A stretch of 64,000 nt of DNA from Alphaproteobacteria bacterium (GCA_028280665.1 JANQLJ010000014.1:9380-73379); one strand, 5' to 3'. Positions 3,408 through 41,091 are shown, counted from the first letter of the stretch. Translations and numbers: made by a program. The notes: generated from the letters alone by a model not told the origin.

Positions 3408-3698
3408 GGGGTTGGCTCGCGCTAATGGGAATTGAGAGGTGCTCGCCAGGCCGCTTAACGGGCCCGCGGGCGGGCGTCCGGGGCTTCCGGATGCGGGCGC
3501 GGTCGTCGCAAGAGCGTCATCGAGCAGGTCATAACCGTCATAGCGCTTACAAAATATTATTCGGTCTGAATGCCGAATGAACGAAGTATATACTGCAAAC
3601 TTTGCGGCAGTGCAACAGGAAAGCGCTTGGAATCCAGCCGGGCCCTCGGTTACGGTCCCGCGGCAACCGGTTAACCAGATCAAGGGGAGAAGCCTTAG

Positions 3699-25952: not shown

Positions 25953-28129
25953 GCGTTGAGAGCGGAGATGGTGCTGCCGCCTTCGTCACCAAGGATGGTG
26001 AGGGGCTGAGCCACATTGATCTGATTGTAAAAGGCATTCACTGCCCCAAGTGCATCTCCGACATCGAGGGCAGCCTGCACGCCAAAGACGGTGTGCGCAA
26101 TGCGCGGGTGAATTTTTCAACTAGCCGCCTGCACGTGGCGTGGGATGCCTCCCGCATCGGATCAACTGACATCGTCAAGACGATCACCGACCTTGGGTTC
26201 GGGGCGACGCCGATTGACGCGGCGGGCGAGCGCACCCCCGACCAGGAAGAAGCGCGGCGGCTTCTTATCGCACTTGCGGTCGCAGGGTTCGCCACCGCGA
26301 ACATCATGCTGCTTTCCATCTCCGTCTGGGCCGGTTTTGAAATGGGCGAAGCCACGCGCAGTCTGCTCCACTGGATTTCGGGGCTGATCGCGCTGCCTGC
26401 TGTTGCCTTTTCCGGGCGGCCGTTCTTTTTCTCCGCCTGGCGCTCCCTCCGCGCAAGCCGCGTCAATATGGACGTACCCATTTCCCTGGCGGTGATCCTT
26501 GCTTGCGTACTCAGCGTCTTTGAAGCCCGCGCGGGCGGCGTGCATACCTATTTCGACGCCGCGGTGATGCTGCTCTTTTTCTTGCTGATTGGCCGGTATC
26601 TCGATTTGCGGATGCGCGTGCGTGCACGGTCCGCGGCCAATGACCTTATGGCCTTGCAGAAGATGGCGGCCCAAGTGATCGCGCCCGATGGCCGGACCTC
26701 GACCGTGCCCGCCGCCGCCGTGCATCCGGGCGACCTTATGCTCGTTGCCCAAGGCGAGCGCGTGCCCGTCGATGGCGTTGTCGAAAGCGGCCGCACCGAG
26801 CTGGATGTCAGCTTGCTTACCGGCGAAACCGTACCGGCGGCCGCCGAACAAGGCACCGCTGTTTTCGCGGGCGCCATCAACCTGGGGGCGCCGATCCGCG
26901 TGCGCGCGGAAAAGACCCGCGAGACCTCCTTGCTCGCGGAAATCGCCCGGCTCATGGAAATCGCCGAACAGGGCCGCGCCCGCTTCGTGCGCCTGGCGGA
27001 CAAGGCCGCGAGCGTCTATGTGCCCGTGGTTCACACCCTCGCCGCCGCGACCTTCATGGGCTGGTGGCTGCTTGGAACAGGCGGCTGGATCCCCGCCGCG
27101 ACCAACGCCATTGCGGTTCTCATCATCACCTGCCCGTGCGCGCTGGGACTGGCGGTCCCAGTGGTGCAAGTGGTGGCGACGGGATACTTGTTCCGGCGCG
27201 GTGTACTGACGAAATCGTCCGACGGGCTTGAACGGCTCGCCGAAGTGGATGCGGTGGTGCTTGACAAGACCGGCACACTCACCCGGGGCCATCCCGAGCT
27301 GATAACCCGTGACGGTGTGGCCGAAGACGACCTTGCGCTCGCAGCAACGCTGGCGCGGGCGAGCCGGCATCCGCTTTCCCGCGCCCTTGTCCGCGCGGCG
27401 GGCGATGGCCCCGCCGCAAAGGATGTAACCGAGACGCCCGGATTCGGCCTTGCTTGGGCTTCCCCTGAGGGCGAAGTGCGGCTGGGCAGCCGCGCCTGGT
27501 GCGGGATCGAGGAAGGCGCAGGTGGGACAGGCCCCGAACTATGGCTGCGTCACGGGGACGGGCGCACGGTTCACTTCGCCTTTGAAGATGCCCTGCGCAC
27601 CGATGCCGCCGAAACCGTATCAACGCTCCGTGACATGGGGCTGACCGTGACGCTTCTTTCCGGCGACCGCCCCGAGGCCGTGCGCGCCGCCGCCAAGGCC
27701 GCAGGAATTGAAGATTTCACCGCAAGCTGTTTGCCCACGGACAAAATCGCGCGGCTTGAGGCGCTCGAAAAGCAAGGCCGCAAAGTGCTGATGGTCGGCG
27801 ATGGCCTTAACGACGCGCCGAGCCTTGCCGCCGCCCATGCCTCCATCTCCCCATCGAGCGCCGCCGACATCAGCCAAACCGCGGCGGATTTTGTCTTTCA
27901 AGGCAAACGGCTGGGAGCGGTCGTCACCGCCTTGCTGGCCGCGCGCGGTGCGCGGCGCCTGGTGCTTCAGAACTTTGGGATTGCCGCCCTTTACAACACC
28001 ATCGCCGTGCCGCTTGCGGTGGCGGGGCTTGTGACGCCCCTTATTGCTGCGGTCGCCATGTCCGCCTCGTCGATTGTGGTGAGCCTCAACGCCCTACGGC
28101 TTAACCTAATGAAACCGGGGGTTCGCTGA
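25940..28129 (+). CDS. ccoI: Copper-translocating P1B-type ATPase CcoI/FixI
   Basis: Start at MGGVSV. HMA domain GIHCPKC, CPC (ITCPCALG), DKTGTLT, GDGLNDAP. Confidence 0.9.
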   Translation: MGGVSVESGDGAAAFVTKDGEGLSHIDLIVKGIHCPKCISDIEGSLHAKDGVRNARVNFSTSRLHVAWDASRIGSTDIVKTITDLGFGATPIDAAGERTPDQEEARRLLIALAVAGFATANIMLLSISVWAGFEMGEATRSLLHWISGLIALPAVAFSGRPFFFSAWRSLRASRVNMDVPISLAVILACVLSVFEARAGGVHTYFDAAVMLLFFLLIGRYLDLRMRVRARSAANDLMALQKMAAQVIAPDGRTSTVPAAAVHPGDLMLVAQGERVPVDGVVESGRTELDVSLLTGETVPAAAEQGTAVFAGAINLGAPIRVRAEKTRETSLLAEIARLMEIAEQGRARFVRLADKAASVYVPVVHTLAAATFMGWWLLGTGGWIPAATNAIAVLIITCPCALGLAVPVVQVVATGYLFRRGVLTKSSDGLERLAEVDAVVLDKTGTLTRGHPELITRDGVAEDDLALAATLARASRHPLSRALVRAAGDGPAAKDVTETPGFGLAWASPEGEVRLGSRAWCGIEEGAGGTGPELWLRHGDGRTVHFAFEDALRTDAAETVSTLRDMGLTVTLLSGDRPEAVRAAAKAAGIEDFTASCLPTDKIARLEALEKQGRKVLMVGDGLNDAPSLAAAHASISPSSAADISQTAADFVFQGKRLGAVVTALLAARGARRLVLQNFGIAALYNTIAVPLAVAGLVTPLIAAVAMSASSIVVSLNALRLNLMKPGVR

Positions 28130-28293
28130 TGGGCGTTATCGGGCTTCTTATCCCCATTGCGCTTTTCCTGGGGTTCATCGGCCTTATCGCCTTCTACTGG
28201 GCGCTCAAGTCAGGCCAGTTCGAAGACCCCGAGGGCGCCGCGCGGCGGATCCTGCTCGATGACGATCTCGACGACATGGGGCCAAAGGAGTGA
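28129..28293 (+). CDS. ccoS: cbb3 maturation protein CcoS/FixS (54 aa; absent from the ORF track)
   Basis: Hand translation gives MGVIGLLIPIALFLGFIGLIAFYWALKSGQFEDPEGAARRILLDDDLDD…. TGATG overlap with the ccoI stop. The ALKSGQF(D/E)D motif is CcoS-like. Confidence 0.65.
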   Translation: MGVIGLLIPIALFLGFIGLIAFYWALKSGQFEDPEGAARRILLDDDLDDMGPKE

Positions 28294-28399
28294 CCAGTGC
28301 CCTCCCGATTACCCCGCCGGATCAATGCTCTAGCCAATTCCCTTAACTAGCAAGTTCAGGTGATGCCCAGGTTTCAGGGCCAGATTATGGGGCTTCGCT

Positions 28400-28668
28400 T
28401 GGCGAATCGCTAATCCCTTGCATTTTCCGCCGCTCTCATTTATTGAGCGCGCTAATCCAGTATCGGAGTACGGGAATCACTGATTACTGTCCGGGTCGTT
28501 CCGGGCGGGATCTCTTGGAAGCACATCCACCCTTGTACCTTTAGTACCCCCCACATCCCCTACCCGCCCCCGGTTGCGTCAGTAAACGAATCCAACGACA
28601 ACACCATCGGTGAGCCTCCGACGGGTGTGTGCTCGTGTTGATGTGTTTTCCTTCCATGGAGGAATAAA
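28400..28668 (+). promoter_or_regulatory. Conserved leader, copy 1, upstream of paralog A
   Basis: About 230 nt shared with copies 2 and 3. Conserved blocks: TTGAGCGCGCTAA (palindromic core AGCGCGCT), GGGAATCACTGATTACTGTC, GTTTCCGGGCGG, CTTGTACC, CCCGCCCCCGGTTGCGT, GTTGATNTGTTTTCC…GGAGGAATAAAATG. CCGGGCGG and CCCGCCC are mutually complementary, which suggests structure. Confidence 0.5.
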
Positions 28669-29601
28669 ATGAAAACAAACTTGGGAAACGGTTCCCTGAT
28701 CGCCCTCGCCGCGGGCCTGCTCATCGCAAGCGCGCCCGCCGCCTATGCTGACGGCGGCACCGTCTTTGCAGTTCAGGGTGAAATTTCAGGCGGCATATCA
28801 GCGGCCGACTTCGATGGTGAAGGCAGCGGCACCAGTGATCTTGATGACGACACCTATCCGGTCCTTGAGGGCGCTGCCCGTGTCAACATTCCGGCGCCAG
28901 ACAATTTCGCCTTTCAGTTCGACATCGAGGGCCTTGCCACCTTCACCGACAGAGACAACGGCGAGGATAACCTGCAAACGGCGTTTACAGGCGGCCTTCA
29001 CGCGGCCCATCGTAAGCCCGGCCACCACGCGGTCGGCCTTTTCGGCGCCTTGGGTTCATCGAACGGCGGCGATGACGAAAATGCCATCTTCGGCATAATT
29101 GGTGCGGAAGGTCAGATGACCGCCAACAACACTACGGTCATTGGACAAGTGGGCTATTTCATCGGCGACGATGAAACTGAAGACGACGTTATGACCGATG
29201 CCTGGCTGTTGCGCGGCGTGGCCCGGTATTTCCTTAAGCCGGATCAACGGATTCAGGGCGAACTTACCTACGCATCAGGTGAAGCAAATGACAGTGCGTG
29301 CTGTGACATCGACGCCTGGGACTGGGGCCTGCGCTATGACCAGCGCTTTGAAAACACCCCCATGGGCTGGGCCATTGGCTACCGCGGCGTATATATCGAA
29401 AACAGCGACAGCCCTGCCGATGAACTCACAGAGCACACGTTCTTTGCGGCTTTAACCTTCACGTTTGGGTATGAAACCGATCTGACGCTGCAAGAAAACA
29501 ACGACCGCGGCGCCACGTGGGATCTTCCCGGTGTGGACCGGTTCACGGGCCATACGATCGAAACCGTGGATTCCGACGGCCACTTGCTTTTCATACCTTG
29601 A
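28669..29601 (+). CDS. Acidic secreted beta-rich protein, paralog A (putative outer-membrane beta-barrel/porin-like)
   Basis: Signal peptide ending AYA-DGG. Alternating amphipathic beta-strand-like stretches (FAFQFDIEGLATFTD, AVGLFGALGSS, TVIGQVGYFIGDD, RIQGELTYASGE, GWAIGYRGVYIEN, TFFAALTFTFGY). Asp/Glu-rich loops. About 80% identical to paralogs B and C. Confidence 0.55.
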   Translation: MKTNLGNGSLIALAAGLLIASAPAAYADGGTVFAVQGEISGGISAADFDGEGSGTSDLDDDTYPVLEGAARVNIPAPDNFAFQFDIEGLATFTDRDNGEDNLQTAFTGGLHAAHRKPGHHAVGLFGALGSSNGGDDENAIFGIIGAEGQMTANNTTVIGQVGYFIGDDETEDDVMTDAWLLRGVARYFLKPDQRIQGELTYASGEANDSACCDIDAWDWGLRYDQRFENTPMGWAIGYRGVYIENSDSPADELTEHTFFAALTFTFGYETDLTLQENNDRGATWDLPGVDRFTGHTIETVDSDGHLLFIP

Positions 29602-29622
29602 TCGAAACACAATCAGGTACAA

Positions 29623-29652
29623 GGAGCGGCCCCCGGGCCGCTCCTTTTTTGT
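29623..29652 (+). terminator. Intrinsic terminator after paralog A
   Basis: GGAGCGGCCCCCGGGCCGCTCC hairpin followed by TTTTTTGTTT. Confidence 0.7.
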
Positions 29653-29659
29653 TTGGGCC

Positions 29660-29916
29660 GATGCCACTGATGCCGATTTGCATCGCCGCCGCTCTCATTT
29701 GTTGAGCGCGCTAACTCAATGTCGGCGTTACGGGAATCACTGACTACCGTTTGGAAAGTTTCCGGGCGGGGCCTCGTGGATCAATATCCATCTTCGTACC
29801 CCACATCCCCTGCCCGCCCCCAGTTGCGTGCGTACACGAATCCAATGACAGCATTGCCGGTGTGCCTCCGAAGGGTGTGCTTGCGTTGATCTGTTTTCCA
29901 TTCACGGAGAAATAAA
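29660..29916 (+). promoter_or_regulatory. Conserved leader, copy 2, upstream of paralog B
   Basis: Same conserved blocks as copy 1 (TTGAGCGCGCTAA, GGGAATCACTGACTAC, GTTTCCGGGCGG, CCCGCCCCCAGTTGCGT, GTTGATCTGTTTTCC…AATAAAATG). Confidence 0.5.
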
Positions 29917-30843
29917 ATGAAAATGAACTTGGGAAGCGGTTCCCTGACCGCCTTCGCCGCGGGCCTTCTGATCGCAAGCGGACCTGCCGCCTATGCTGAC
30001 GGCGGAACCGTCTTTGCGGTTCAGGGTGAAATCTCGGGCGGCGTATCGATAACAGATTCTGAGAATACCGGCACCGGACATGACGATGGCACCTACCCGA
30101 TCCTTGAAGGCGCTGCCCGTGTCAACATCCCTGCGCCGGATAACTTCGCCTTTCAGTTCGATATAGACGGGCTCGCCACCTTTACCGATAGAGACCATGG
30201 TGAAGACAACCTGCAAACCGCATATACCACCGGCCTTCATGCGGCCTACCGCAAGCCCGGCCACCACGCGGTCGGCCTTTTCGGCGCCTTGGGATCATCG
30301 AACGGCGGCGAAGATGAAAACGCGCTCTTCGGCCTGATCGGTGCGGAGGGCCAAATGACCGCGAACAACACCACGGTCATCGGGCAGGCGGGCTATTTCG
30401 TCGCCGATGATGAAACCGAAAACGATGTCATGACCGACGCCTGGCTGTTGCGTGGCGTGGCGCGTTACTTCATGGAGCCGGATCAACGGATTCAGGGCGA
30501 ACTCACCTACGCATCAGGTGAAGCAAGTGACAGTGCGTGCTGCGACATCGATGCCTGGGACTGGGGCCTTCGCTATGACCAGCGCTTCGAGAACACCCCC
30601 ATGGGCTGGGCCATTGGCTATCGCGGCGCACATGTCGAAAACGATGATAGCCCCGCCGACGAGTTCACAGAGCACACGTTCTTTGCGGCTTTGACCTTCA
30701 CGTTTGGATATAAAAACTACCTGACGCTGCAAGAAAACAATGACCGCGGCGCCACGTGGGATCTTCCAGCCGTGGACCGGTTCACCGGGTACACAACGGA
30801 AATCGTGGATTCTGACGGTAACCTCCTCTCCCTAATAAATTAG
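29917..30843 (+). CDS. Acidic secreted beta-rich protein, paralog B
   Basis: 308 aa, same architecture as paralog A (signal peptide, FAFQFDIDGLATFTD …). Confidence 0.55.
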   Translation: MKMNLGSGSLTAFAAGLLIASGPAAYADGGTVFAVQGEISGGVSITDSENTGTGHDDGTYPILEGAARVNIPAPDNFAFQFDIDGLATFTDRDHGEDNLQTAYTTGLHAAYRKPGHHAVGLFGALGSSNGGEDENALFGLIGAEGQMTANNTTVIGQAGYFVADDETENDVMTDAWLLRGVARYFMEPDQRIQGELTYASGEASDSACCDIDAWDWGLRYDQRFENTPMGWAIGYRGAHVENDDSPADEFTEHTFFAALTFTFGYKNYLTLQENNDRGATWDLPAVDRFTGYTTEIVDSDGNLLSLIN

Positions 30844-30862
30844 ACCAAGCCAATCGGACAAA

Positions 30863-30892
30863 GGAGCGGCCCCGGGGCCGCTCCTTTCGTTT
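30863..30892 (+). terminator. Intrinsic terminator after paralog B
   Basis: GGAGCGGCCCCGGGGCCGCTCC hairpin followed by TTTCGTTT. Confidence 0.6.
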
Positions 30893-30959
30893 GCGCTTGT
30901 GCAATCAGGTGCCCTAAGCAGGCGAATCGCTGGCCTGCCCGCCTCAGGCCTGCGCAGCT

Positions 30960-31234
30960 TTGGCTGATTCGGCGCCAAACCGCTTGCATTTGGGGTCTTG
31001 CTCATCTATTTAGCGCGCTAGCTCTGTACCGGAGTAAGGGAATCACTGATTACTGTCTGGACAGTTTCCGGGCGGAATCTCTTGGATGCGCATCCACCCT
31101 TGTACCCCTGAGTACCCTCATTCCCTACCCGCCCCCCGTTGCGTCAGTACAAAAAATCGACACGGCCGCCGCACATGCATTTCCGGCGCAGGCGCGCTTT
31201 GCGTTGATCTGTTTTCCGTCCATGGAGGAATAAA
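30960..31234 (+). promoter_or_regulatory. Conserved leader, copy 3, upstream of paralog C
   Basis: Same blocks. Here the palindrome is perfect (TAGCGCGCTA), followed by GGGAATCACTGATTACTGTC, GTTTCCGGGCGG, CTTGTACC, CCCGCCCCCCGTTGCGT and GTTGATCTGTTTTCC…GGAGGAATAAAATG. Confidence 0.5.
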
Positions 31235-32134
31235 ATGAAAATAAACTTGGGAAGCGGTTCCGTGATGGCCCTCGCCACGGCCTTCCTGATCGCAAGCGTG
31301 CCCGCCGCCTATGCTGACGGCGGCACCATCTTTGCGGTTCAGGGTGAAATTGCAGGCGGCATATCGACAAACGACGTGAAGAATCTCGAAGACGAAGAGC
31401 ATGATGACGAGAGCTATCCGATCATTGAGGGTGCTGTCCGCATCAATGTTCCGGCGCCGGATAACTTCGCCTTTCAGTTCGATATTGATGGTCTTGCCAC
31501 CTTCACCGACAGGGACGAAGGCGAAGAGAACCTTCAAACGGCATTTACAGGCGGCCTTCACGTGGCCCACCGGCGACCCGGCCACAACGCGGTTGGCCTC
31601 TTCGGAGCAATAGGCTCATCGAACGGCGGCGAGGATGAAAACGCGCTCTACGGCTTGTTCGGGGTGGAAGGTCAAATGACCGCCAACAACACCACGGTCA
31701 TTGGGCAGGTGGGCTATTTCATTGCCGATGATGAAACCGAAGATGACGTCATGACCGATGCCTGGGTCTTGCGCGGTGTGGCGCGGTACTTCCTGAAGCC
31801 CGATCAACGGGTCCAGGGCGAACTCACATACGCGACAGGCGAAGAAGCCGACAGCACATGCTGTGACTACGACTTCTGGGACTGGGGCCTCCGCTATGAT
31901 CAGCGCTTCGAAAACACACCCATGGGCTGGGCCCTCGGTTATCGCGGCACATATGGCAGAAACACCGAAACCCCCTCCCAAGCAGTCACAGAGCACACGG
32001 TCTTTCTGGCTTTGTCGTTCCTGTTTGGTCATGGGAGCGATCTTACGCTCCAAGCCAACAACGACGTGGGCGCCACGTGGGATCTCCCGTCCGTGGACCG
32101 GTTCACCGGGTACACAACGGAGATCATCGACTAG
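31235..32134 (+). CDS. Acidic secreted beta-rich protein, paralog C
   Basis: 299 aa. Signal peptide. Same strand pattern as paralogs A and B. Confidence 0.55.
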   Translation: MKINLGSGSVMALATAFLIASVPAAYADGGTIFAVQGEIAGGISTNDVKNLEDEEHDDESYPIIEGAVRINVPAPDNFAFQFDIDGLATFTDRDEGEENLQTAFTGGLHVAHRRPGHNAVGLFGAIGSSNGGEDENALYGLFGVEGQMTANNTTVIGQVGYFIADDETEDDVMTDAWVLRGVARYFLKPDQRVQGELTYATGEEADSTCCDYDFWDWGLRYDQRFENTPMGWALGYRGTYGRNTETPSQAVTEHTVFLALSFLFGHGSDLTLQANNDVGATWDLPSVDRFTGYTTEIID

Positions 32135-32174
32135 CCTCACCGGCTGACCAAAGTCCGGTTCACTTAAGTTGAAT

Positions 32175-32204
32175 GGGGGCGGCCCTTGGGCCGCCCCTTT
32201 TGCT
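32175..32204 (+). terminator. Intrinsic terminator after paralog C
   Basis: GGGGGCGGCCCTTGGGCCGCCCC hairpin followed by TTTTGCTTT. Confidence 0.6.
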
Positions 32205-32318
32205 TTGGCGTGCTGATACCGCGAACGGCGCGATGTTTAGTCAATTTTAATCCAGGTGACAGAGGCTGAAAATGAAAGTGGCACCCTGTGCCACTTTAAA
32301 GAGAATTAGGCCTTTGGG

Positions 32319-34787
32319 ATGTCAACCGTAAGTAAAAACTACCTGGCGAAGCGATTCCTGGTTGCGGGGCTCGTGTGCCTTGCCGCGTTCCTTGCGACCG
32401 GCTTTGCCGGATGGCGCACGATCACGTCCGCAAACGTGGCGAACAGCTACCAGTCCGCATTCCATCATCTGATCGAGGTGACATACGGCTTTGCATTTGA
32501 GGTGCATATGGCCGGTGGTGGTTCCGGCGATCATTCGGGTACGGATCCAAGACAACTGAACGCAATGCTGTACGCGCTTGCTGACATCTATGGCACGTTG
32601 CGGCGGTTCGACCCCGATGGACTGGAAGACGAGGAGGAGGAGAGTTCATCCCTCGACGAGGGCTATGACGAGCAGCATCTGGATGAAACCATCGAACTGA
32701 TCCTCTCAAACAATCCGGCGGATTATATGCCGGCCGTCACCCTGATCGGCCGCATGCCGTCCAACCTCTATGAAGCATGGGAAGATAATCCGACCAACAC
32801 CACCGAGTCGCTCGAAACGGTGATCGGCAATGTTCTCATTTTAGGAAACCAGTTTGTCAGCCAACCGGAAACGCAATTCGGTTCCGCCTCTTCCGAGGCT
32901 ATGCGCCGCGAAATCGTGGAGCTCGTGCAAAACGACGCCGCGCCGGGCATCGAGGCGCTACGCCTGCAAATGGCCGCCGATACCGTCCGTTACACGCGGA
33001 CGGTCAGGCCTTTCATCATTGCTGGCATTCTTCTCGGGATAGGCACATTGGCATTCGTGTGGCTCGCAATCTTGAGACCCATGAGTACTGCCATCCTCAA
33101 AGCGCAAGTACAAACCGCCAAGGAGCGGGACCGCGCCGTCGCTTCCGAGCGCGCCAAGTCCGAGTTTCTGGCCGTTGTCAGCCACGAAATCCGTACACCG
33201 ATGAATGCGGTGATAGGCTTCACCGATCTCCTTAAACAAAGCAGCGTGAACGAAACACAACTTGGATACCTTGAAACCATCCGGACGTCGGGCAACGATC
33301 TGATCGGGATCGTCGATGAGATACTGGATTACTCCAGATTGGAATCGAACAAGTACGAGCTTGAATCCATTACGTTCAATCCGAAAGACCTGACCGGAAG
33401 CGTTGCCAGGTTGTTCGGCCCCCGCATCGCCGAGGCGGGCCTTGATCTGGTGACGTCGGTTGACCCGGCGCTACCCGGGGAAGTTATCGGCGACGCCGGC
33501 GCCATTCGTCAGGTTTTGTTCAATCTGGTGAGTAATGCCATCAAGTTCACCCAAGCAGGAATGGTGGCGATCGAGGCGCGGTACAGCGGCACCGATGAAG
33601 ATGGCCGGCATGTTGTAGAATTTGCCGTGACCGACACCGGCATCGGCATTCCGAAGGAAAAACTCGATTCAATCTTTCAAGCTTTCACCCAAGCCGACAG
33701 TTCCGACCGGCGGCAATATGGCGGAACGGGCCTTGGCCTTGCCATATGCCGGCGCCTGATCGGCCTGATGGGCGGTACCATCCGAGCCGAAAGCACGCCG
33801 GGGCAAGGAACCTCCATGCGCGTCGCCATTCCCCTAAACGGGCCATTGAATGAAGCGGCGCCCTCAACGGCTTCCGGTGCGCCGGAGCCGGACTTACAAG
33901 GCTTGAACATACTGATTGCCGACCCCATGAACCGGAAGCGGGAGTTGATCGCCGCTCTCCTCACATCGTGCGGAGCGGATGTTTCGTTGGTGCATAGTGT
34001 AAGCGAAGCCAAACGCGAGATCGAAACCGCGGCGCGGAAGGGCGCGCCTTTCCATGTTGCGGTCTTCAATGAAGCCGCCGCCGGGGCCCACGACCACCTG
34101 GTGTGGGAGGAACTCAAATCCGCAGGCGATGGTCCGGCCCCTCACTTGATCCTCATTACTGGCAATCATGTCGAAAGCACTTCAGGGGGCACCGGCCTGG
34201 ACGGACTAGTGAACGTGTGCCCCAAACCTCTTGCGGTTCATGATCTCGCCGCACTGATCTATCAGGCCGCTGTCAATCCTGAACATTCTGATTGCGCCGA
34301 TGACGCGGGGGGGACCGAAACGGGGGACAGGGCATCCGGGGGGCAAACCCCCCTATCTCCCCCCGGTCACAAAGGTACGATCCTTCTTGCCGAGGACAAC
34401 GTCCCCAACCAGCAACTGCTCAAGATCGGTCTGACCCAGGCGGGGTATGTGGTTCAGGCCGTCACCAATGGCAAGGACGCCGTCGAGGCCACCAAGCAAT
34501 TCGCATACGACATCATCCTGATGGACCGGAACATGCCCGTCATGGACGGCATTGCCGCCATCGAGCTTATACGCGCCGCCGGTGGCCCGAATGCAAACGT
34601 GCCCATTCTGGCCGTGACGGCAAGTGCCTTTGACAGAAATCGGGACGAATTTATCACAGCAGGCGCCGATGACTTTGTTCGCAAACCGATAGATTTGGAA
34701 TTGATCCTTACACAGATTGAGAACTGGATCGCCTCCGGGCGCAATGTGCAAGGCCGCCCTTCACCGGCAACAAAAAGCGTTGCGTAA
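32319..34787 (+). CDS. Hybrid sensor histidine kinase/response regulator
   Basis: Two TM segments flank a periplasmic sensor region. HisKA H-box SHEIRTPMNAV. HATPase N/G boxes (LVSNAIKFT, DTGIGI, GGTGLGLAI). An internal receiver-like domain and a C-terminal REC (ILLAEDN…ILMDRNMPVMDG). Confidence 0.85.
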   Translation: MSTVSKNYLAKRFLVAGLVCLAAFLATGFAGWRTITSANVANSYQSAFHHLIEVTYGFAFEVHMAGGGSGDHSGTDPRQLNAMLYALADIYGTLRRFDPDGLEDEEEESSSLDEGYDEQHLDETIELILSNNPADYMPAVTLIGRMPSNLYEAWEDNPTNTTESLETVIGNVLILGNQFVSQPETQFGSASSEAMRREIVELVQNDAAPGIEALRLQMAADTVRYTRTVRPFIIAGILLGIGTLAFVWLAILRPMSTAILKAQVQTAKERDRAVASERAKSEFLAVVSHEIRTPMNAVIGFTDLLKQSSVNETQLGYLETIRTSGNDLIGIVDEILDYSRLESNKYELESITFNPKDLTGSVARLFGPRIAEAGLDLVTSVDPALPGEVIGDAGAIRQVLFNLVSNAIKFTQAGMVAIEARYSGTDEDGRHVVEFAVTDTGIGIPKEKLDSIFQAFTQADSSDRRQYGGTGLGLAICRRLIGLMGGTIRAESTPGQGTSMRVAIPLNGPLNEAAPSTASGAPEPDLQGLNILIADPMNRKRELIAALLTSCGADVSLVHSVSEAKREIETAARKGAPFHVAVFNEAAAGAHDHLVWEELKSAGDGPAPHLILITGNHVESTSGGTGLDGLVNVCPKPLAVHDLAALIYQAAVNPEHSDCADDAGGTETGDRASGGQTPLSPPGHKGTILLAEDNVPNQQLLKIGLTQAGYVVQAVTNGKDAVEATKQFAYDIILMDRNMPVMDGIAAIELIRAAGGPNANVPILAVTASAFDRNRDEFITAGADDFVRKPIDLELILTQIENWIASGRNVQGRPSPATKSVA

Positions 34788-34831
34788 CGTCCCGCCGGGG
34801 TTTGGCGCCATCAAAGCAAAGGGGGATACTC

Positions 34832-35653
34832 ATGTTCCAGGACCGCTCAGCGTGCGGGGAACCGCTAAAGGTTGTTTTCGCAATCTGTCTGTGCGTTGCT
34901 GTCCTAAGCGGAACAGCGGCGCAGGCCACTGATGATGAGGACGAAGGTCACGACTTTCTTTTCCTAGTGGAAGAAGCCTACACCCAAGAGGACGGCGAGA
35001 TACAATTGACCGCTGCCTTGCATCGAAGCCCCCTTGATGACGGCGGGTGGATGCTCGGCTTGAGCGGCGAATATGGCATCACCGATCGCCTGCAAGCCGA
35101 GGTCGAAGTGCCCGTTTACTTGGATTCGCCCGGTGATGAGGCCGACGGCATTGGCGATCTTGAAGTCGAGCTGGCCTTCGCCGTGATTGAAGAAAGTGAC
35201 ACCCTGCCTCAAGTGACCATCTCCGCGGGCGTTCTCGTCCCCACGGGCGACGACAGCGAAGGCCTGGGCAGCGGGGGCTGGGGATACGAAGCGGGCCTTG
35301 CGGTCAGCCGGCGGCTGGGCCGCGCCGGCTTTCTTTATGGCGCAGGCAGCTTCGAGCGGGTGCCCGACGGCCAAGACGAAGACGGCGACCCGATCGAAAT
35401 CGAGGAATGGTCCTTTGCCGCGGGCGTGGCGCTCGCCGTCAACGACCGCACTACGGGTTTGATCGAGATATCATCGGAGCGCGAGCGGGAGGAAGGCGGC
35501 GGTGAGACCGAAATCGAGCGCGAGACGCTTCTTTCCCTTGGGTTTTCTTTCGAGCTCAACGACTATTTTGAGCTAGGCGCCGCCTATCAAATTGGGCTCT
35601 CCGACGACGCACCTGACGACGGCATCATCTTCAAAATCAAGGCGGAATGGTAG
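34832..35653 (+). CDS. Acidic outer-membrane beta-barrel protein (MetA-pathway/porin-2-like family candidate)
   Basis: Start at MFQDRS. Signal peptide AICLCVAVLSGTAAQA. Alternating beta-strand pattern. Terminal aromatic ending …IIFKIKAEW, as typical of OMPs. Confidence 0.5.
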   Translation: MFQDRSACGEPLKVVFAICLCVAVLSGTAAQATDDEDEGHDFLFLVEEAYTQEDGEIQLTAALHRSPLDDGGWMLGLSGEYGITDRLQAEVEVPVYLDSPGDEADGIGDLEVELAFAVIEESDTLPQVTISAGVLVPTGDDSEGLGSGGWGYEAGLAVSRRLGRAGFLYGAGSFERVPDGQDEDGDPIEIEEWSFAAGVALAVNDRTTGLIEISSEREREEGGGETEIERETLLSLGFSFELNDYFELGAAYQIGLSDDAPDDGIIFKIKAEW

Positions 35654-35828: not shown

Positions 35829-36629
35829 TTGCATGAGGGGCACGAGAGGATGAACCAGACAAAGCGCGTAACGCTTTACGAAGACCAGGACCTCCAATCC
35901 ACGGTGACCTGGTATGCGCCGCATCTGCGCATGAAGACCCATGCGCACGGCGTGCATCAGTTTTCCTTTCTGCTCGCGGGCGGGCTGACCGAAGAGACCG
36001 CACGCGATACGAAAACATGCGAGGTGCCGAGCCGGGGCATTAAATGCGCCGGGCAAGTTCACGCGAACCGCTACGGCCCGCACGGCGCCCTGATCCTTAC
36101 AGCTAATCTCAACCCTGAAGCCGCCGAGCCCATACACCAGCCCCCTTGGCGGTGGGAGCACATGACCGCGCCCAAGGATTGCGCCGCATTCGGCGCCCCG
36201 TTGCTCAAATCGCTTTGGCTAAGCCCGCAAGAAGAACGGCGTGACATCATTTGGGATCTGATCGCCCATCAATTCAGCGAAGAAGATCGCGCACCCGAGG
36301 ATGCCTGTCCCCGCTGGCTCAAACGGGTGCTTGAGGAACTGCATGAATCCCCCGAAAGCGCCGACCTTGGCGGGCTCGCGGTTAAACACGGCATTCATCG
36401 CGGGCACCTCTCGCGCGCCTTCAAGCGCCGGTTCGGCGTCAGTCCCAGCCAATACCGTGCGCGTATTAAGGTTATGCGCGGCATCACCCGCCTCATGCAG
36501 GGCCAACGCCCCGCGCAAGCCGCCCTTGGTGCGGGGTTCGCCGACCAAAGCCATTTCTCCCGCGTGGTTAGCCGGTATTTGGGCGTAACTCCCGGGTCTC
36601 TGAAAGGGTTTCTGCACGCGGCAAGTTAA
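35829..36629 (+). CDS. AraC family transcriptional regulator
   Basis: C-terminal AraC HTH (LAVKHGIHRGHLSRAFKRRFGVSPSQYR). Start ambiguous (35829 or 35850). Confidence 0.75.
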   Translation: MHEGHERMNQTKRVTLYEDQDLQSTVTWYAPHLRMKTHAHGVHQFSFLLAGGLTEETARDTKTCEVPSRGIKCAGQVHANRYGPHGALILTANLNPEAAEPIHQPPWRWEHMTAPKDCAAFGAPLLKSLWLSPQEERRDIIWDLIAHQFSEEDRAPEDACPRWLKRVLEELHESPESADLGGLAVKHGIHRGHLSRAFKRRFGVSPSQYRARIKVMRGITRLMQGQRPAQAALGAGFADQSHFSRVVSRYLGVTPGSLKGFLHAAS

Positions 36630-36695: not shown

Positions 36696-38297
36696 ATGAA
36701 CGCCAAATTTGTACTCGCCGCCGGGACTCTCACGCTTGCCCTTGGTGGTTGTGCGGGTGCGCAAGCGCCTTATACTAATCTTTATACGGATGATGAATTT
36801 ACCCGGATCGAAACGGGCATGAATGCGCTGCTTGATGCCTTCGAGGCCCATGAGGAATTCCCGCCCGGATACACCGTCACCGTTGCCACCACCGACGGCC
36901 GCGTCTGGATTCGCACCGGCGGCACGCTGCGTGAGGGGTCTGGGTTAGTCGCCGAGCCCACCTCCGCCTTCTATATCGCCTCGATGACCAAGGCCTATAT
37001 GGGTCTGCTGGCGGCCCATCTGGACAGCGAGGGGGTGCTGCCGCTCGATACAAGCCTCGCGGATTATTGGCCCGGCCTTGAGATGCCTGGTGGCTTGAGC
37101 GCATCGGAGGTCACGCTGCATGACCTCATCACCCACCAAGTCCCGATCACCGCGGGTGAGATTATCGGCACCGAGGCCTATTTCCGCGACCTCGTGCCGG
37201 AAGAATATCCCGCCTATATCGAGACTTACGCCGTACCGCGCGAGCCCGGCTTTCAATACGACAATCTGGGCTACAACATCTACGCCGCGATCCTGGAACA
37301 GGAAACGGGCAAGAACTGGCGCGACTGGCTGCAGGAGGTGATTTTCGGCCCCAACGGGATGACCGGGACATCGGGCCGCACATCGGACTTTGATCCCGCC
37401 ACCGTTGCATGGGGCCATCAGCTCGACACGGGCATCGCGCCCGTGTGGCCCGCGGCGGAGGGCTGGCACCTTATCCCGCCCAAGACCGACGGCATGATGC
37501 AGTCGGCGGGCGGGCTGATGACCACTGCCGAAGACCTCGCCACGTGGCTGCGCATGAACCTCACTCACGAAGCGAGCGGCATCGACGCAGAGACCTTCGC
37601 ACGTGCGCAAACCGAATATGCGCAACAGGAAGGCGACGGGCACGGCTTTTCTGATGTGGGCTACACCTACGGCTGGAACACCACCGTGCTAATCCATGAA
37701 CGCGCCGATGCAAGCGGCGAGATCCCCGCTAACACGCCGCTTCTGCAGCACGGCGGCGGGTATACGGGCTATGCTTCGCTGATCACCATGGCGCTGGAAG
37801 CAGGCATCGGGGTCGCGGTCACCCTCAATGCGGATGGCGCCGCCTACTTCACGGCCTTTGAAATCTCAGAGCAGTTATTCGAACTGGCCCTCGGCATCCA
37901 GGACATCGAAACCGCAACACAAAACCGGGCCAGCCTCTTTGAGCGCGTCACGACCCATTTTCGCACGACGCGCCAGGAACGCATGGTGGAAGCCCTCGCC
38001 GAAGAGCGTTGGGGGGATGGCGGCTGGACGCCTGATGCCACCACGCTCGATGCCTATGTGGGCCGTTATGAAAGCGAAGGCTGGCTGCCTTATGTGGAGA
38101 TCACCCGCGAGGGCGATATTCTCCGCGCTCGGCTCTATGACGCCCAGCGCTATGTGGTGCCGCACAGCCTGGACATTTTCCTGGGCTTTGCCGATGCCGC
38201 CTACATCCCCGAATACTTCCACTTCACGCGGGACGAGGGCGGCGCCGTCACCGGCCTCACCTGGGATGAAGATGTGTTCGTAAAGGTGAGCGACTGA
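36696..38297 (+). CDS. Serine hydrolase, class C beta-lactamase-related lipoprotein
   Basis: Lipobox LALGGCAG. SxxK active-site motif in FYIASMTKAY. YxN-like region. Extra C-terminal domain. Confidence 0.75.
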   Translation: MNAKFVLAAGTLTLALGGCAGAQAPYTNLYTDDEFTRIETGMNALLDAFEAHEEFPPGYTVTVATTDGRVWIRTGGTLREGSGLVAEPTSAFYIASMTKAYMGLLAAHLDSEGVLPLDTSLADYWPGLEMPGGLSASEVTLHDLITHQVPITAGEIIGTEAYFRDLVPEEYPAYIETYAVPREPGFQYDNLGYNIYAAILEQETGKNWRDWLQEVIFGPNGMTGTSGRTSDFDPATVAWGHQLDTGIAPVWPAAEGWHLIPPKTDGMMQSAGGLMTTAEDLATWLRMNLTHEASGIDAETFARAQTEYAQQEGDGHGFSDVGYTYGWNTTVLIHERADASGEIPANTPLLQHGGGYTGYASLITMALEAGIGVAVTLNADGAAYFTAFEISEQLFELALGIQDIETATQNRASLFERVTTHFRTTRQERMVEALAEERWGDGGWTPDATTLDAYVGRYESEGWLPYVEITREGDILRARLYDAQRYVVPHSLDIFLGFADAAYIPEYFHFTRDEGGAVTGLTWDEDVFVKVSD

Positions 38298-38323
38298 GCA
38301 CTGCAACAGCGAACAAGACTTGA

Positions 38324-38370
38324 TTGGTAGCGGAGGAGGGACTCGAACCCCCGACACGCGGATTATGATT
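38324..38370. repeat. 47-bp direct repeat (att-like) copying the 3' end of tRNA-Met
   Basis: TTGGTAGCGGAGGAGGGACTCGAACCCCCGACACGCGGATTATGATT is identical to 40838..40884. Confidence 0.75.
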
Positions 38371-40837
38371 GAGGCCGCAAACTCCAATGGGCTCCCACAC
38401 GCTCCCCGTCACTTCTAGTTGTGTGGTTTCAAACGCCTAGGTCCACATTTGGGGGTAAGGTGTTTCAGGCGAATAGCCAAACTACACCCATCGCAAGCAT
38501 TTTATCTGTCGTTAGCCATTTGCGCCTTACAGCAGTTGGTAGACGTCGTTCTGAGAGCCTCTGGCAAACAGAGTATCGCAACCAATGCTTGCAAAACAAT
38601 ATAGCGTCTACTATCTTGCCACGATGATGTATGGAATTGGGAATTGATGGCTAGATGAAAGAGGCGCTTTCAAAATCATTTCTGAATGCATGCCTTGATG
38701 GAGAACTTAAGACAGATGTGTTTTTCCGTGATTGGTTCCTGGTCAACGGCAGTTCATATGTCTTTCTCTTCAGAAAGAGCGCACGCATAACAAATCTACA
38801 GTTCGCGGAGTTCTTCTCGCTCCTGCAGATGAACTTGAAGGATAAGGCGAGTGGCTCTCCACTCACGGATCCTCAGTTTATCACGTCTCAAGATTTCAAA
38901 GTAGCACTTTCCCAAATGTGTCAGGAATTCTCCGGATTCGGTGCGGAGGAGATTAGATGCGTTACCGAACTGTTTAGTGACATGCTGGGCCGCCAAATTG
39001 TCTGCAACGGTTTTCACTGCAGCTACATAGTATACGTTCCACCGCACCTAGAGTTGGATATTCTCAATATGTGTGCGTCGTCAGGGTATATTCACTCGTG
39101 CGGTCACCTTGTCTTTGCAAGGAACATCAATAAGGTTTCCGAAGATTTCATTAAGAGTCGGCTAGAGGCACACCTAAAGCGGTATCCAGTTCAGACCGAT
39201 TCGAAAGTCCTGTTTACAGTTTATACCCATGAAGACTTCTCGAAATTTGATCGCGCTATGTCCTCCGATCTTCGGTATGGTCTCGATGGCGTGAAGATCC
39301 ATATCAACAAAGCCTTTGTTGGAAGAACGAGTCTAATAAATGCGCTCAGCAACATTAGAGATAGATTTGAAGATGAGATCGAAGTTTCCGAAGCTGGATT
39401 TTACAAAAAATCTCGAAGGGATTACACAGAAGCACACCCAGACGCTGAGCCGCGTACACTTTGGCTGATTTGCGATGCTGGGCTTGGCCCTGGCTCCAAA
39501 TACCCAAACGATGAAAAGTACTATGTTTGCTATGATCAGCTATACATAAATGAAAACCCGTTCTATTTATTCGACGAGGATAAACCAGCATGGGCGAGCC
39601 ACACAACAATTCCGCACACAATGGCCGGCGCGCTTGTAAACATTTCCCGTCCCTGGTGGAATTCCAATCGAAGAACCGAAATCGTTGACCCCTTTGGAGG
39701 ATCAGGAACGGTTTTCTTTGAGGCAATTAAGTTTCAAGAGGTTGGCGCTCAATCCTTTGATCTATCCCCTATTTCGAGCCAGTTACTTAGAGACAATTTG
39801 CGGTTATTTACAGCTACCAAAGATGAGTTAGAGGAATTGCTCAATCATATTGGGTCGCTAATTCGTGATGGCCGCTTAGTTACATCGGAACCCCATTTTG
39901 CAAAAACACAACCACCAAATGAGACCATTGAAGGCTACGAATGGGCAACTGGACTGTTGGGTAAACTGCATTGTAAACGCCGTGAAACAAATTATGACTT
40001 TTCACCTGATGATGTGGCAAATCTATGCCAAAAGTCATTTCTGACTCGAGTAATCTTCTATCTGGTCCTGAAAGCTGCAATTAGAGGATCACCAGAGATT
40101 CAGCGGCAAAACAGTGATTGGCAAGCTCTTTTCTTGGACCAACACGCCAATCTCATAGAGAGATTGGAGCTACTAATCGATGTTCGGAGAAGAGACATTG
40201 ATTCTAAATTGGAAACCCATGATGTGCTGACGTTCGCTGGATCTTACTCCCGCTCCTGTCGGCCTGCCCTCCATGCCCCACAAAAAGCTACTGATGGTAA
40301 TTGGGCAATGGATTGGGCGAAGCGTGACGTGCTTGAACTTAAGCCAAACTCATGTGACGTGATTATCACTGATCCACCATACGGCTTCAATACAGATCAA
40401 GATCACCTCGAACTGGCGACACTTTTTCAAAATGCTGTGCCCTCTATGTTAAGAGCCATACGTAGCGGCGGCCAACTGATCATTTGCTGCCCCGACCATT
40501 CATATTCTGGTCGGACACTGCCCTTCTATACTGATCCAAGGTTTCTTGTGCATCAAGTTCTTGGAATTGCGAGACAATGTGGAAAAGAGATTCTCCAACC
40601 TTCGTACTCTCTTCCGGCAGAAGTACGCAATGTAAGGCCGCCATACTACTGGGAATCAGAGAGGGCTTTGCGACGGAGAATTCTGCATTTTTGGATGAGA
40701 GACATCACTTCAATTTGAAATCGCTCCTACGAAGCCCAACGGCATATCCCAATTGACCAGACGTCCTCATAAATATTCCTAAATCAAAGCCTGACAGGGC
40801 GCGTGCTCAATTCCGCAAATGTTTATCTGATTTTTTG
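38371..40837. mobile_element. tRNA-Met-associated genomic islet, about 2.5 kb, atypically low GC, no integrase
   Basis: Bounded by the 47-bp direct repeats. Composition roughly 42-45% GC (by eye) against about 63% in the flanks. Contains a single large ORF. Confidence 0.55.
38655..40718 (+). CDS. Islet-borne 687-aa protein with a (D/N)PPY amino-methyltransferase domain and an unrecognised N-terminal domain
   Basis: Motif I IVDPFGGSGTVFFEA resembles the DPxCGSGTxxIEA of RlmL/Trm11/UPF0020 N2-G RNA methyltransferases. Motif IV is IITDPPYGFN. About 220 aa separate them. The N-terminal ~330 aa match nothing I recognise. Confidence 0.55.
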   Translation: MKEALSKSFLNACLDGELKTDVFFRDWFLVNGSSYVFLFRKSARITNLQFAEFFSLLQMNLKDKASGSPLTDPQFITSQDFKVALSQMCQEFSGFGAEEIRCVTELFSDMLGRQIVCNGFHCSYIVYVPPHLELDILNMCASSGYIHSCGHLVFARNINKVSEDFIKSRLEAHLKRYPVQTDSKVLFTVYTHEDFSKFDRAMSSDLRYGLDGVKIHINKAFVGRTSLINALSNIRDRFEDEIEVSEAGFYKKSRRDYTEAHPDAEPRTLWLICDAGLGPGSKYPNDEKYYVCYDQLYINENPFYLFDEDKPAWASHTTIPHTMAGALVNISRPWWNSNRRTEIVDPFGGSGTVFFEAIKFQEVGAQSFDLSPISSQLLRDNLRLFTATKDELEELLNHIGSLIRDGRLVTSEPHFAKTQPPNETIEGYEWATGLLGKLHCKRRETNYDFSPDDVANLCQKSFLTRVIFYLVLKAAIRGSPEIQRQNSDWQALFLDQHANLIERLELLIDVRRRDIDSKLETHDVLTFAGSYSRSCRPALHAPQKATDGNWAMDWAKRDVLELKPNSCDVIITDPPYGFNTDQDHLELATLFQNAVPSMLRAIRSGGQLIICCPDHSYSGRTLPFYTDPRFLVHQVLGIARQCGKEILQPSYSLPAEVRNVRPPYYWESERALRRRILHFWMRDITSI

Positions 40838-40838
40838 T

Positions 40839-40915
40839 TGGTAGCGGAGGAGGGACTCGAACCCCCGACACGCGGATTATGATTCCGCTGCTCTAACCAG
40901 CTGAGCTACTCCGCC
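40839..40915 (-). tRNA. tRNA-Met (anticodon CAT; elongator-type, Ile2/lysidine not excluded)
   Basis: Reverse complement GGCGGAGTAGCTCAGCTGGTTAGAGCAGCGGAATCATAATCCGCGTGTCGGGGGTTCGAGTCCCTCCTCCGCTACCA folds as a cloverleaf with anticodon loop AT-CAT-AA. Confidence 0.85.
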
Positions 40916-41091
40916 CCAAGGGGGTGCCGGCGCGGCTTGGATTATCAAGGCCCGGCAGAGTTCGCGATTTACGGGCGCCGCACGCGAGTGTCAAGGCGGG
41001 TATCAAAGCAGGTCGGCCCGGGCCGTCCGAATCCGGGCATGATGCCCGCGGCGTTATCGCCGCCCTCTTTACGCCCAAGGAGCCCCGCGCG

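Follow-up and report, generated by a model that had tools for sequence, protein, structure and literature searches.

The three tandem paralogs described here, which occupy the same strand of a 64,000-nt stretch of alphaproteobacterial DNA (hereafter the window), are probably the product of a young, lineage-specific triplication of a single monocistronic outer membrane protein (OMP) gene, together with its promoter, 5' UTR and intrinsic terminator. Leaders upstream of the three genes would be under ordinary purifying selection only, acting on the promoter, on whatever regulator sites are present and on the region where translation begins. The ORFs (28669-29601, 29917-30843 and 31235-32134; + strand) were recovered exactly where a sequence-only reading of this DNA had placed them, and encode proteins of 310, 308 and 299 aa, the C-terminal tail of 9-10 residues seen in copies 1 and 2 being absent from the third. 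Protein identities of 85% (1-2), 76% (1-3) and 75% (2-3) agree with the approximately 80% proposed in that reading. Each paralog forms a unit with homologous DNA upstream and a GC hairpin terminator downstream, consistent with the claim that leader, gene and terminator were triplicated as a whole. The suggested neighbours were also confirmed from Pfam domains on either side of the cassette: upstream, cbb3 oxidase subunits were recognised by COX1, FixO and FixP, and the maturation genes by FixG, FixH and an E1-E2 ATPase that also carries an HMA domain; downstream lies a hybrid histidine kinase (32319-34787) possessing HisKA, HATPase_c and Response_reg domains. An AraC-type gene (35829-36629) was also identified near the cassette.

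Upstream homology opens with a shared TTGCAT (28418, 29678 and 30984) and extends ~240-255 nt to each ATG, defining leader 1 (28415-28668, +; nhmmer E = 4e-89), leader 2 (29677-29916, +), which is missing 11 nt present in leaders 1 and 3, and leader 3 (30957-31234, +), whose homology to leaders 1 and 2 was detected through alignment, BLASTN and nhmmer. Pairwise BLASTN identities among the leaders were 76.5%, 76.3% and 70.8% (E = 1e-47 to 3e-24), and nhmmer identified no further leader copies in the window. Coinciding with the 5' edge of this homology is a candidate sigma-70-type promoter, TTGCAT-N17-TATTGA (28418-28446, +), the sole -35/-10-like pair that all three leaders retain, with equivalents at 29678 (TTGCAT, N16/17) and 30984-31012 (TTGCAT-N17-TATTTA). 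The TTGCAT-N17-TATTGA/TATTTA candidates, at -251, obtained low PWM scores (5.4-6.5), and a strict sigma-70 consensus scan of the leaders found no promoter. Transcription from such a weak promoter would provide each copy with a 5' UTR of ~225 nt, followed by translation from a strong SD, with GGAGG positioned 6 nt ahead of the ATG.

Each gene had also been thought to carry its own GC-rich hairpin and T-tract terminator, which is the case for copies 1 and 3 but only for the hairpin of copy 2. Terminator 1 (29621-29656, +) combines an 11-bp GC stem with TTTTTTGTTT and passed a hairpin and T-run scan (29621-29646), as did terminator 3 (32175-32208, +; scan match 32175-32198), in which the stem sequence differs from those of copies 1 and 2 with pairing kept. 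The hairpin of terminator 2 (30861-30887, within 30861-30895, +) matches that of terminator 1 at 96% identity; the T-run after it is interrupted (TTTCGTTTG), the scan did not call this site, and it is therefore a weaker candidate for Rho-independent termination.

All leader blocks quoted in the earlier reading are present, although the exact strings occur in only one or two copies, with 1-3 mismatches in the others; copy 2, for example, carries the variants GGGAATCACTGACTACCGTT and CTTCGTACC. Among the conserved features is a palindrome, TGAGCGCGCTAA (core AGCGCGCT; 28444-28455, 29703-29714 and 31010-31021, +), with three matches in the window, all in leaders, compared to 0.1 expected. Motif search and alignment further identified an invariant block, GGGAATCACTGAYTAC, containing the palindrome AATCAcTGATT (28472-28487, 29732-29747 and 31038-31053, +), and motif search an inverted repeat, TGGA(T)-N4-(A)TCCA (28516-28529, 29777-29790 and 31083-31096, +), the last copy of which is a perfect 14-bp palindrome. 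A C-rich block, TCCCCTACCCGCCCCCGGTTGCGT (28556-28579, +), follows, with 85% of its columns invariant in the three copies. The most conserved silent block (28635-28790, +) comprises GTTGAT.TGTTTTCC, the SD GGAGGAA, the ATG and the first ~40 codons, corresponding to the signal peptide; here three-way identity reaches 0.75-0.95, and the fraction of conserved residues with identical codons is 0.83, compared to 0.53 elsewhere (p = 0.007). Invariant runs of 9-12 nt within the leader, its excess of invariant columns over 4-fold sites (see below) and the weakness of the proposed promoter count against the triplication under ordinary constraint that we favour.

How unusual is this degree of conservation? 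Non-coding sequence had been described as conserved about as well as coding sequence, which holds only roughly: among paralog pairs, nucleotide identity is 71-77% for the leader, below the 80-84% of the CDS and slightly above the 64-72% of 4-fold degenerate sites. The leader JC distance of 0.23-0.39 corresponds to a dI/dS of ~0.4-0.66. Published estimates place 62-79% of bacterial intergenic sites under constraint, which is strongest close to gene starts (bioRxiv 10.1101/069708), and leader divergence, at ~0.4-0.7 of the synonymous rate, lies within or below this usual constraint. The earlier view that the leaders are conserved to an unusual degree, for which a riboswitch-like 5' UTR was one of two readings offered, is thus not supported: the leader rate is that of ordinary bacterial regulatory intergenic DNA.

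The resemblance of the leaders may instead be explained by the copies being young and still exchanging sequence through gene conversion. With a dS of 0.56-0.62, the paralogs are young and far from saturation, whereas dS to orthologs is >1.7 or saturated; similarly, identity at 4-fold sites is 0.64-0.72 among paralogs and 0.33-0.46 to orthologs, ~0.3 being random. The dN/dS ratio is 0.14-0.28 among the paralogs themselves and 0.05-0.12 when they are compared with orthologs. The informative site patterns 12|3, 13|2 and 23|1 vary significantly across 11 segments of the unit (chi-square 53.2, df 20, p = 8e-5), and they differ between the leader and the 3' CDS (p = 0.004). Phylogenetic signal consequently shifts along the repeat unit, as in concerted evolution of tandem paralogs, and these mosaic patterns point to gene conversion between copies.

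Taken further, the same patterns might suggest that the similarity is entirely passive, reflecting recent duplication and gene conversion of a leader that is functionless beyond its core promoter and RBS, a reading that would also accommodate leader identity near that of 4-fold sites, indels of 1, 2 and 11 nt, and the essentially complete replacement of a ~40-nt segment (28596-28634) in copy 3. We regard it as distinctly unlikely, given that three-way invariant columns are significantly more frequent in the leader (0.62-0.66) than at 4-fold sites (0.505; Fisher p = 0.012, for 0.66), and that invariance occurs in blocks common to all three copies as opposed to pairwise conversion tracts. Clustering of invariant leader columns into runs is marginal (p ~0.05).

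Orthologs of the array proteins (62-74% aa identity) are single-copy genes in unrelated genomic contexts. Upstream of these orthologs (L001, L007, L008, L009 and L011-L015), no similarity to the leader was detected by blastn, nhmmer or shuffled local alignment, and a covariance model of the leader 5' domain matched only its three training sequences. The orthologs compared are all past synonymous saturation, such that these searches address deeply conserved elements and not lineage-specific ones. Judged from the relatives that could be compared, the leader is restricted to the array, the outcome that the sequence-only reading had itself named as telling against its regulatory proposals. A distant relative was found to possess an independent tandem triplet, with spacers of 37-80 nt and lacking a long leader.

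Under the preferred explanation, a shared regulator might recognise the short palindromes at and just past the putative start site, and the three copies would then be co-regulated. Alternatively, the conserved blocks might represent DNA operators for at least one dedicated transcription factor, possibly tied to the neighbouring hybrid histidine kinase or to the AraC-family gene, with the real promoter located downstream and most of the 'leader' being upstream regulatory DNA and not transcript. We consider this arrangement possible but unlikely. Three palindromic or inverted-repeat sites (AGCGCGCT, AATCAcTGATT and TGGAT-N4-ATCCA) occur in all copies, and potential regulators are encoded nearby; however, the palindromes are short (8-11 bp), AATCAcTGATT is imperfect in copy 2, and no conserved -35/-10 pair was found downstream of them. 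In favour of operators, the 1-nt centre of AATCAcTGATT is incompatible with an RNA hairpin, and TGGAT-N4-ATCCA retains its arms around a variable centre in the alignment of the three leaders. Folding predicts the latter as a hairpin. None of the three motifs occurs in the window outside the leaders, thus providing no sign of a regulon, and no partner regulator was found to be conserved beside the orthologs.

A structured cis-regulatory 5' UTR (riboswitch-like, an RNA thermometer, or a target of an sRNA or RNA-binding protein) appears very unlikely. Here, a multi-hairpin 5' domain and an SD-sequestering hairpin near the RBS would govern either how the OMP mRNA is translated or how stable it is. 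RNAalifold predicted a consensus domain with 94% of cells paired, in which a GGGA/UCCC stem closes around 2-3 hairpins, and the helices show 6 double-sided changes relative to 2.7 +/- 1.3 in shuffles (8/500 reach 6; three sequences only), such that a local RNA structure may exist. However, covariation among three sequences is weak, and these helices were inferred from the same sequences used for counting pairs, so that the covariation count is biased upward. Helix 3 contains many G-U pairs, such that its pairing would be possible only as + strand RNA, and a pyrimidine run, UUUUCC(N)UCC, could pair with either the SD or GGGAAAC at codons 6-8. Although silent-site conservation is unusually high over the first ~40 codons, low synonymous rates are a general property of gene 5' ends (PMC12725619). 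Relative to composition-matched shuffles, MFE z-scores were +0.27, -0.09 and +0.67 for the full leaders and -0.11, -0.04 and -0.81 for the initiation region, despite local SD-sequestering folds being predicted for the latter. The Rfam search proposed in the earlier reading returned no described cis-regulatory RNA, whether ROSE, fourU or any riboswitch (best E = 1.6): cmscan of 27000-33500 against Rfam 15 (E <= 10) produced seven chance-level matches (14.7-18.8 bits compared to gathering thresholds of 40-123), none collinear with the leaders. Among OMP mRNAs, those of the E. coli ompA type possess a long 5' UTR that stabilises the mRNA and is an sRNA target. The array resembles ompA in its putative long leader, local hairpins and strong SD before an OMP gene, but differs in showing no sequence or Rfam similarity and no excess folding stability. 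Together, these findings suggest that the array represents an ordinary lineage-specific amplification, in which the likeness of the upstream regions does not require a special RNA switch.

Structural modelling is consistent with the earlier idea of a secreted, very acidic outer membrane barrel. The high-confidence AF2 model (pLDDT 89.8, pTM 0.85) contains 12 strands in a closed antiparallel fold, indicating that the genes likely encode precursors of a 12-stranded outer membrane beta-barrel with a pI of 4.05 and a net charge of -34 to -38. Foldseek identified 237 matches in the PDB at E <= 0.001, and the best 50 of 237 are nearly all outer membrane barrels. At the level of sequence families, Pfam OMP_b-brl (PF13505) matched copy 1 below threshold (18.7 bits; gathering cutoff 28.7) and neither copy 2 nor copy 3, 25 of 136 family members matched it at E <= 0.01, and NCBIfam returned no match for the paralogs. 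A candidate signal peptide, MK.NLG..(hydrophobic)..AAYA|DGG, modelled as a low-pLDDT helix (residues 8-21), would direct Sec export of the precursor with cleavage after AYA, followed by folding into the predicted barrel. The last strand ends in FTFGY and is followed by 35-45 further residues, so that the terminal aromatic is not C-terminal; these include a conserved extension of ~35 residues (GATWDLP..DRFTGYT). The mature net charge of ~-35 would suit either a channel selective for cations or a surface barrel that binds them.

Among characterized structures, the model resembles the KdgM/NanC-type VhGalP (PDB 8xua), a 12-stranded monomeric outer membrane channel with a barrel of similar size (Foldseek E = 5e-6, target-normalised TM 0.63), with lower scores for OmpG (TM 0.49-0.52) and CymA (TM 0.45-0.47). 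This resemblance is at the level of the predicted fold only: KdgM (PF06178) matched neither the window proteins (E <= 1) nor 136 relatives (E <= 0.01), and no PDB sequence matched the array proteins. KdgM-type channels transport acidic sugars through a lining of basic residues, whereas the array protein is strongly acidic and, unlike KdgM/NanC, OmpG and CymA types, possesses a conserved C-terminal extension past the last strand.

Tandem duplicated OMP genes are known from oprO-oprP of Pseudomonas, omp2a/omp2b of Brucella, and the p28/omp-1 and msp2 arrays of Anaplasmataceae. With these the present array shares adjacent OMP paralogs, divergent surface loops and signs of gene conversion. It differs in that its copies are three direct repeats, every one of them a complete monocistronic unit with its own terminator and a leader of ~250 nt, and in belonging to a family that is unrelated in sequence to these proteins and is without a described function. 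Differences among the paralogs fall mostly in surface loops L1 (2/13 positions identical in the three copies) and L6 (1/5), while periplasmic turns are identical at 15/15. The likely benefit of the array may be twofold, combining higher dosage with diversity in surface or specificity.

At this locus, an expression cassette encoding an acidic 12-stranded outer-membrane barrel has been copied in its entirety, giving three tandem units in a single lineage. As proposed in the sequence-only reading, the duplication encompasses whole units: three plus-strand ORFs (28669-29601, 29917-30843 and 31235-32134, encoding 310, 308 and 299 aa, respectively) share 85% (copies 1-2), 76% (1-3) and 75% (2-3) protein identity, and each ATG is preceded by ~240-255 nt of homologous DNA (BLASTN identities of 76.5%, 76.3% and 70.8%; E = 1e-47 to 3e-24). 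A profile built from these three leaders matched only the same three sites in the 64-kb window. The homologous unit starts at a common TTGCAT (28418, 29678 and 30984), spans the gene and reaches a GC-rich hairpin. Each copy had also been assigned its own terminator; the hairpin is indeed found in all three, and terminators 1 (29621-29646) and 3 (32175-32198) passed a hairpin and T-run scan, but terminator 2 (30861-30887), despite a hairpin nearly identical to that of terminator 1, has an interrupted T-run. An exact 11-mer, GGCGAATCGCT, was also identified 5' of leaders 1 and 3 (28401-28411 and 30921-30931), 16 nt and 63 nt from TTGCAT, respectively; this placement suggests that the unit-3 duplication breakpoint lay further upstream and was followed by an insertion.

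Pfam searches confirmed the neighbours previously named, with cbb3 oxidase subunits (COX1, FixO, FixP) and maturation genes (FixG, FixH and an E1-E2 ATPase with HMA) located upstream of the array, and a hybrid histidine kinase (32319-34787) downstream. An AraC-type gene is found further on, at 35829-36629. Tandem outer-membrane protein (OMP) paralogs are an already known kind of arrangement. Given that orthologs are not adjacent to cco genes, the array may be a later insertion beside them.

Modelling with AlphaFold2, based on a 136-sequence alignment, yielded a confident structure (pLDDT 89.8, pTM 0.85) comprising 12 beta-strands and, C-terminal to them, a conserved extension of ~35 residues that includes two short helices. 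Foldseek searches of the PDB returned outer-membrane barrels, the highest TM-score corresponding to VhGalP (8xua; TM 0.63 on target), a KdgM-type 12-stranded barrel whose fold the modelled paralog resembles, followed by OmpG, CymA and autotransporter barrels. Both the predicted outer-membrane barrel and its strong acidity (mature pI about 4.05, net charge -34 to -38) are upheld. At the sequence level, no family membership was found in Pfam or NCBIfam (OMP_b-brl scored 18.7 bits against a cutoff of 28.7, and was weakly matched by 25 of the 136 family members), and neither single-protein nor profile searches of PDB sequences gave a meaningful match. A profile search recovered 936 clusters at 50% identity, 153 of them at E <= 1e-30. 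The acidic 12-stranded barrels are a real, fairly widespread and uncharacterised family without a Pfam or NCBIfam model; the array is of secondary, descriptive value in marking this family and its C-terminal extension, and its interest beyond family annotation is low.

When mapped onto the model, all five periplasmic turns were identical in the three copies (15/15 residues), with paralog differences falling mostly in loops L1 (2/13 identical) and L6 (1/5), and in adjoining strand ends. dN/dS values between paralogs (0.14-0.28) exceed those to orthologs (0.05-0.12), a pattern consistent with surface loops having come under relaxed or diversifying selection once the gene was duplicated. A distant member of the family (about 29% identity) was also found to form a tandem triplet of independent origin at the metagenomic locus L020 (JGI 3300038431, 580-3970; the same region as L017-L019). 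The triplet members (355, 369 and 365 aa) share 62-79% mutual identity and are separated by spacers of 37-80 nt without a long leader; tandem expansion therefore recurs in the family, and the long leader does not. At least two independent tandem expansions have occurred in the barrel family, with variation centred on two surface loops. In L019, the barrel triplet is followed by three tandem Peptidase_S74 paralogs.

Each paralog has two neighbouring cysteines at positions 211-212 (e.g. 29299-29304), in an acidic context (DSACCDID) close to the outer end of strand 10; this Cys-Cys pair could represent a vicinal disulfide or metal site. The pair is shared by the two closest orthologs and replaced by ET in a third, P0005. 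The latter (locus L007, 2434-3313) was called without a signal peptide; the ATG at 2434 opens a frame encoding MIKMNKFGLTAAALALLIA..., and the mature part (start 2516) is read in another frame, which indicates a frameshift resulting from assembly error or a pseudogene.

The sequence-only reading had considered the leaders unusually well conserved for non-coding DNA. With silent divergence within the same repeat units as the yardstick, this does not hold. Leader nucleotide identity (0.71-0.77) lies between that of the whole CDS (0.80-0.84) and that of 4-fold degenerate sites (0.64-0.72), and from Jukes-Cantor (JC) distances of 0.23-0.39 among leaders and dS (NG86) of 0.56-0.62 among paralogs, the leader evolves at ~0.4-0.7 of the silent rate. 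Leader columns invariant in all three copies (0.62-0.66) are in excess of invariant 4-fold sites (0.505; Fisher p = 0.012), and their clustering into runs is marginal (permutation test, p about 0.05). In several bacteria, 62-79% of intergenic sites are constrained relative to synonymous sites, with constraint peaking near gene starts (Thorpe et al., bioRxiv 10.1101/069708); the constraint on the leaders is at or below this level. Nor do the copies evolve independently: informative site patterns, defined by which two copies agree against the third, are heterogeneous from one part of the unit to another (chi-square 53.2, df 20, p = 8e-5), with 13|2 favoured in the 5' leader and 12|3 in the 3' half of the CDS. 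Shifts of this kind are characteristic of tandem copies that undergo gene conversion. A young duplication, gene conversion and ordinary regulatory constraint best account for the similarity of the leaders. Long identical non-coding blocks between tandem paralogs are to be expected if the duplication is too recent for synonymous sites to have saturated and the copies convert, and the main value of these findings is one of caution, namely that silent sites should serve as the calibration for such blocks before a riboswitch is proposed.

Conservation of the leader outside the array, on which the sequence-only reading had made its case depend, was not detected upstream of orthologs, as far as the data allow. 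Close protein homologs are very rare: among 5.8 billion proteins, a word-indexed search returned seven, and a second such search with a profile added only proteins named 'hypothetical protein'. Homologs were located in marine-type metagenomes and a single alphaproteobacterial MAG, with orthologs (62-74% aa identity) present in single copy in unrelated neighbourhoods. Comparison of their upstream regions with the leaders by blastn (word size 7), nhmmer --max and shuffled Smith-Waterman local alignment revealed nothing significant, the only common strings being 8-11-mers at chance level, e.g. GTGCGTAC and CTTGCCATTTG; a covariance model of the 5' domain of the leader matched only the three leaders themselves, and nothing upstream of orthologs. 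Since the orthologs are beyond synonymous saturation (4-fold identity 0.33-0.46; dS above 1.7), this comparison excludes a deeply conserved riboswitch-class element, not a lineage-specific one.

Analyses of RNA structure likewise leave the proposed riboswitch-like leader unsupported. No Rfam match was obtained for the leaders at E <= 10 (the best hit, at E = 1.6 and 15.5 bits, being far under its gathering score), and whole-leader folds were no stabler than shuffles (MFE z = +0.27, -0.09 and +0.67). RNAalifold predicted a 5' domain in which a closing stem, GGGA/UCCC, encloses hairpins, one of them a G-U-rich stem (GAUUACUGUCYGG/CCGGGCGGRAUC), as well as a stem, GUUUUCC/GGGAARC, bracketing the SD and AUG. 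Within this structure 94% of cells pair, and double-sided changes occur in 6 pairs against 2.7 +/- 1.3 in shuffles (8/500), a hint only, because the structure was derived from the same three sequences. Silent conservation is highest in the initiation region, which spans position -36 to the ATG together with the first ~40 codons; there, codons are identical at 0.83 of conserved residues versus 0.53 elsewhere (p = 0.007). Predicted local folds of this region sequester the SD, but their stability does not exceed that of shuffles (z = -0.1 to -0.8). Lowered synonymous rates are general at the 5' ends of bacterial genes and may arise without selection (PMC12725619). A small conserved ORF or leader peptide was rejected, as the leaders differ in their uORF starts and carry indels of lengths not divisible by 3.

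All three leaders retain a core palindrome, AGCGCGCT, a second palindrome, AATCAcTGATT, and an inverted repeat, TGGAT-N4-ATCCA, none of which occurs elsewhere in the 64-kb window; these palindromes are possible operators. The sole conserved promoter-like pair, TTGCAT-N16/17-TATTGA or TATTTA at -251, scores poorly, and is favoured because in every copy it coincides with the 5' boundary of the duplicated unit, and in copies 2 and 3 lies directly 3' of the preceding terminator. A candidate promoter at this position would make the start site coincide with the first palindrome and leave the remainder as a putative ~225-nt 5' UTR. Alternatives were checked by eye on the leader alignment against consensus sequences. 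Neither a sigma-54 (GG-N10-GC) nor an EcfG promoter (GGAAC-N16-CGTT) is kept in all three leaders; the same applies to a sigma-32 promoter (CTTGAA..CCCCAT), for which an 11-nt deletion in leader 2 destroys the spacing, and to an FNR/FixK box (TTGAT-N4-ATCAA), present as a half-site only. A lineage-specific RNA or operator function for the conserved blocks is possible and unsupported.

It could be further envisaged that the ~130-nt 5' domain (28449-28579 and its two copies), with a pyrimidine-rich anti-SD segment, is a lineage-specific regulatory leader RNA switching translation of the three barrel genes together (with temperature, a cation or an sRNA as possible cues), and that the acidic 12-stranded barrels with their vicinal Cys-Cys serve as a channel for cations, perhaps copper, across the outer membrane, tied functionally to the adjacent cbb3-oxidase copper-delivery genes; we regard this combined scenario as highly improbable. 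A link to the cco genes was rejected, orthologs occupying unrelated neighbourhoods, as was a conserved association between OMP and histidine kinase genes, the 791-aa ORF following the homolog at L009 having no Pfam domains and being dissimilar to the kinase of the window.

Elsewhere in the window, a fourth very acidic outer-membrane barrel gene (34802-35653, +) lies 15 nt 3' of the hybrid histidine kinase, with which it is probably co-transcribed; its product (Pfam Phenol_MetA_deg, E = 4e-6; mature pI 4.05, net charge -46) bears no sequence relation to the triplicated family. GC content across the OMP array and kinase region (28000-35000) is 0.57-0.59, below that of the adjoining cco genes (0.64-0.67). 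A stretch of lower GC (38000-41000; 0.45-0.52 vs about 0.60 for the window) adjoins a tRNA-Met gene (40839-40915, minus strand) and is probably a horizontally acquired islet; a 687-aa ORF at 38655-40718 (GC3 0.44) encodes an RMKL-like methyltransferase domain. Low GC3 (0.47) was also observed for a DUF6338 ORF at 47629-48276.
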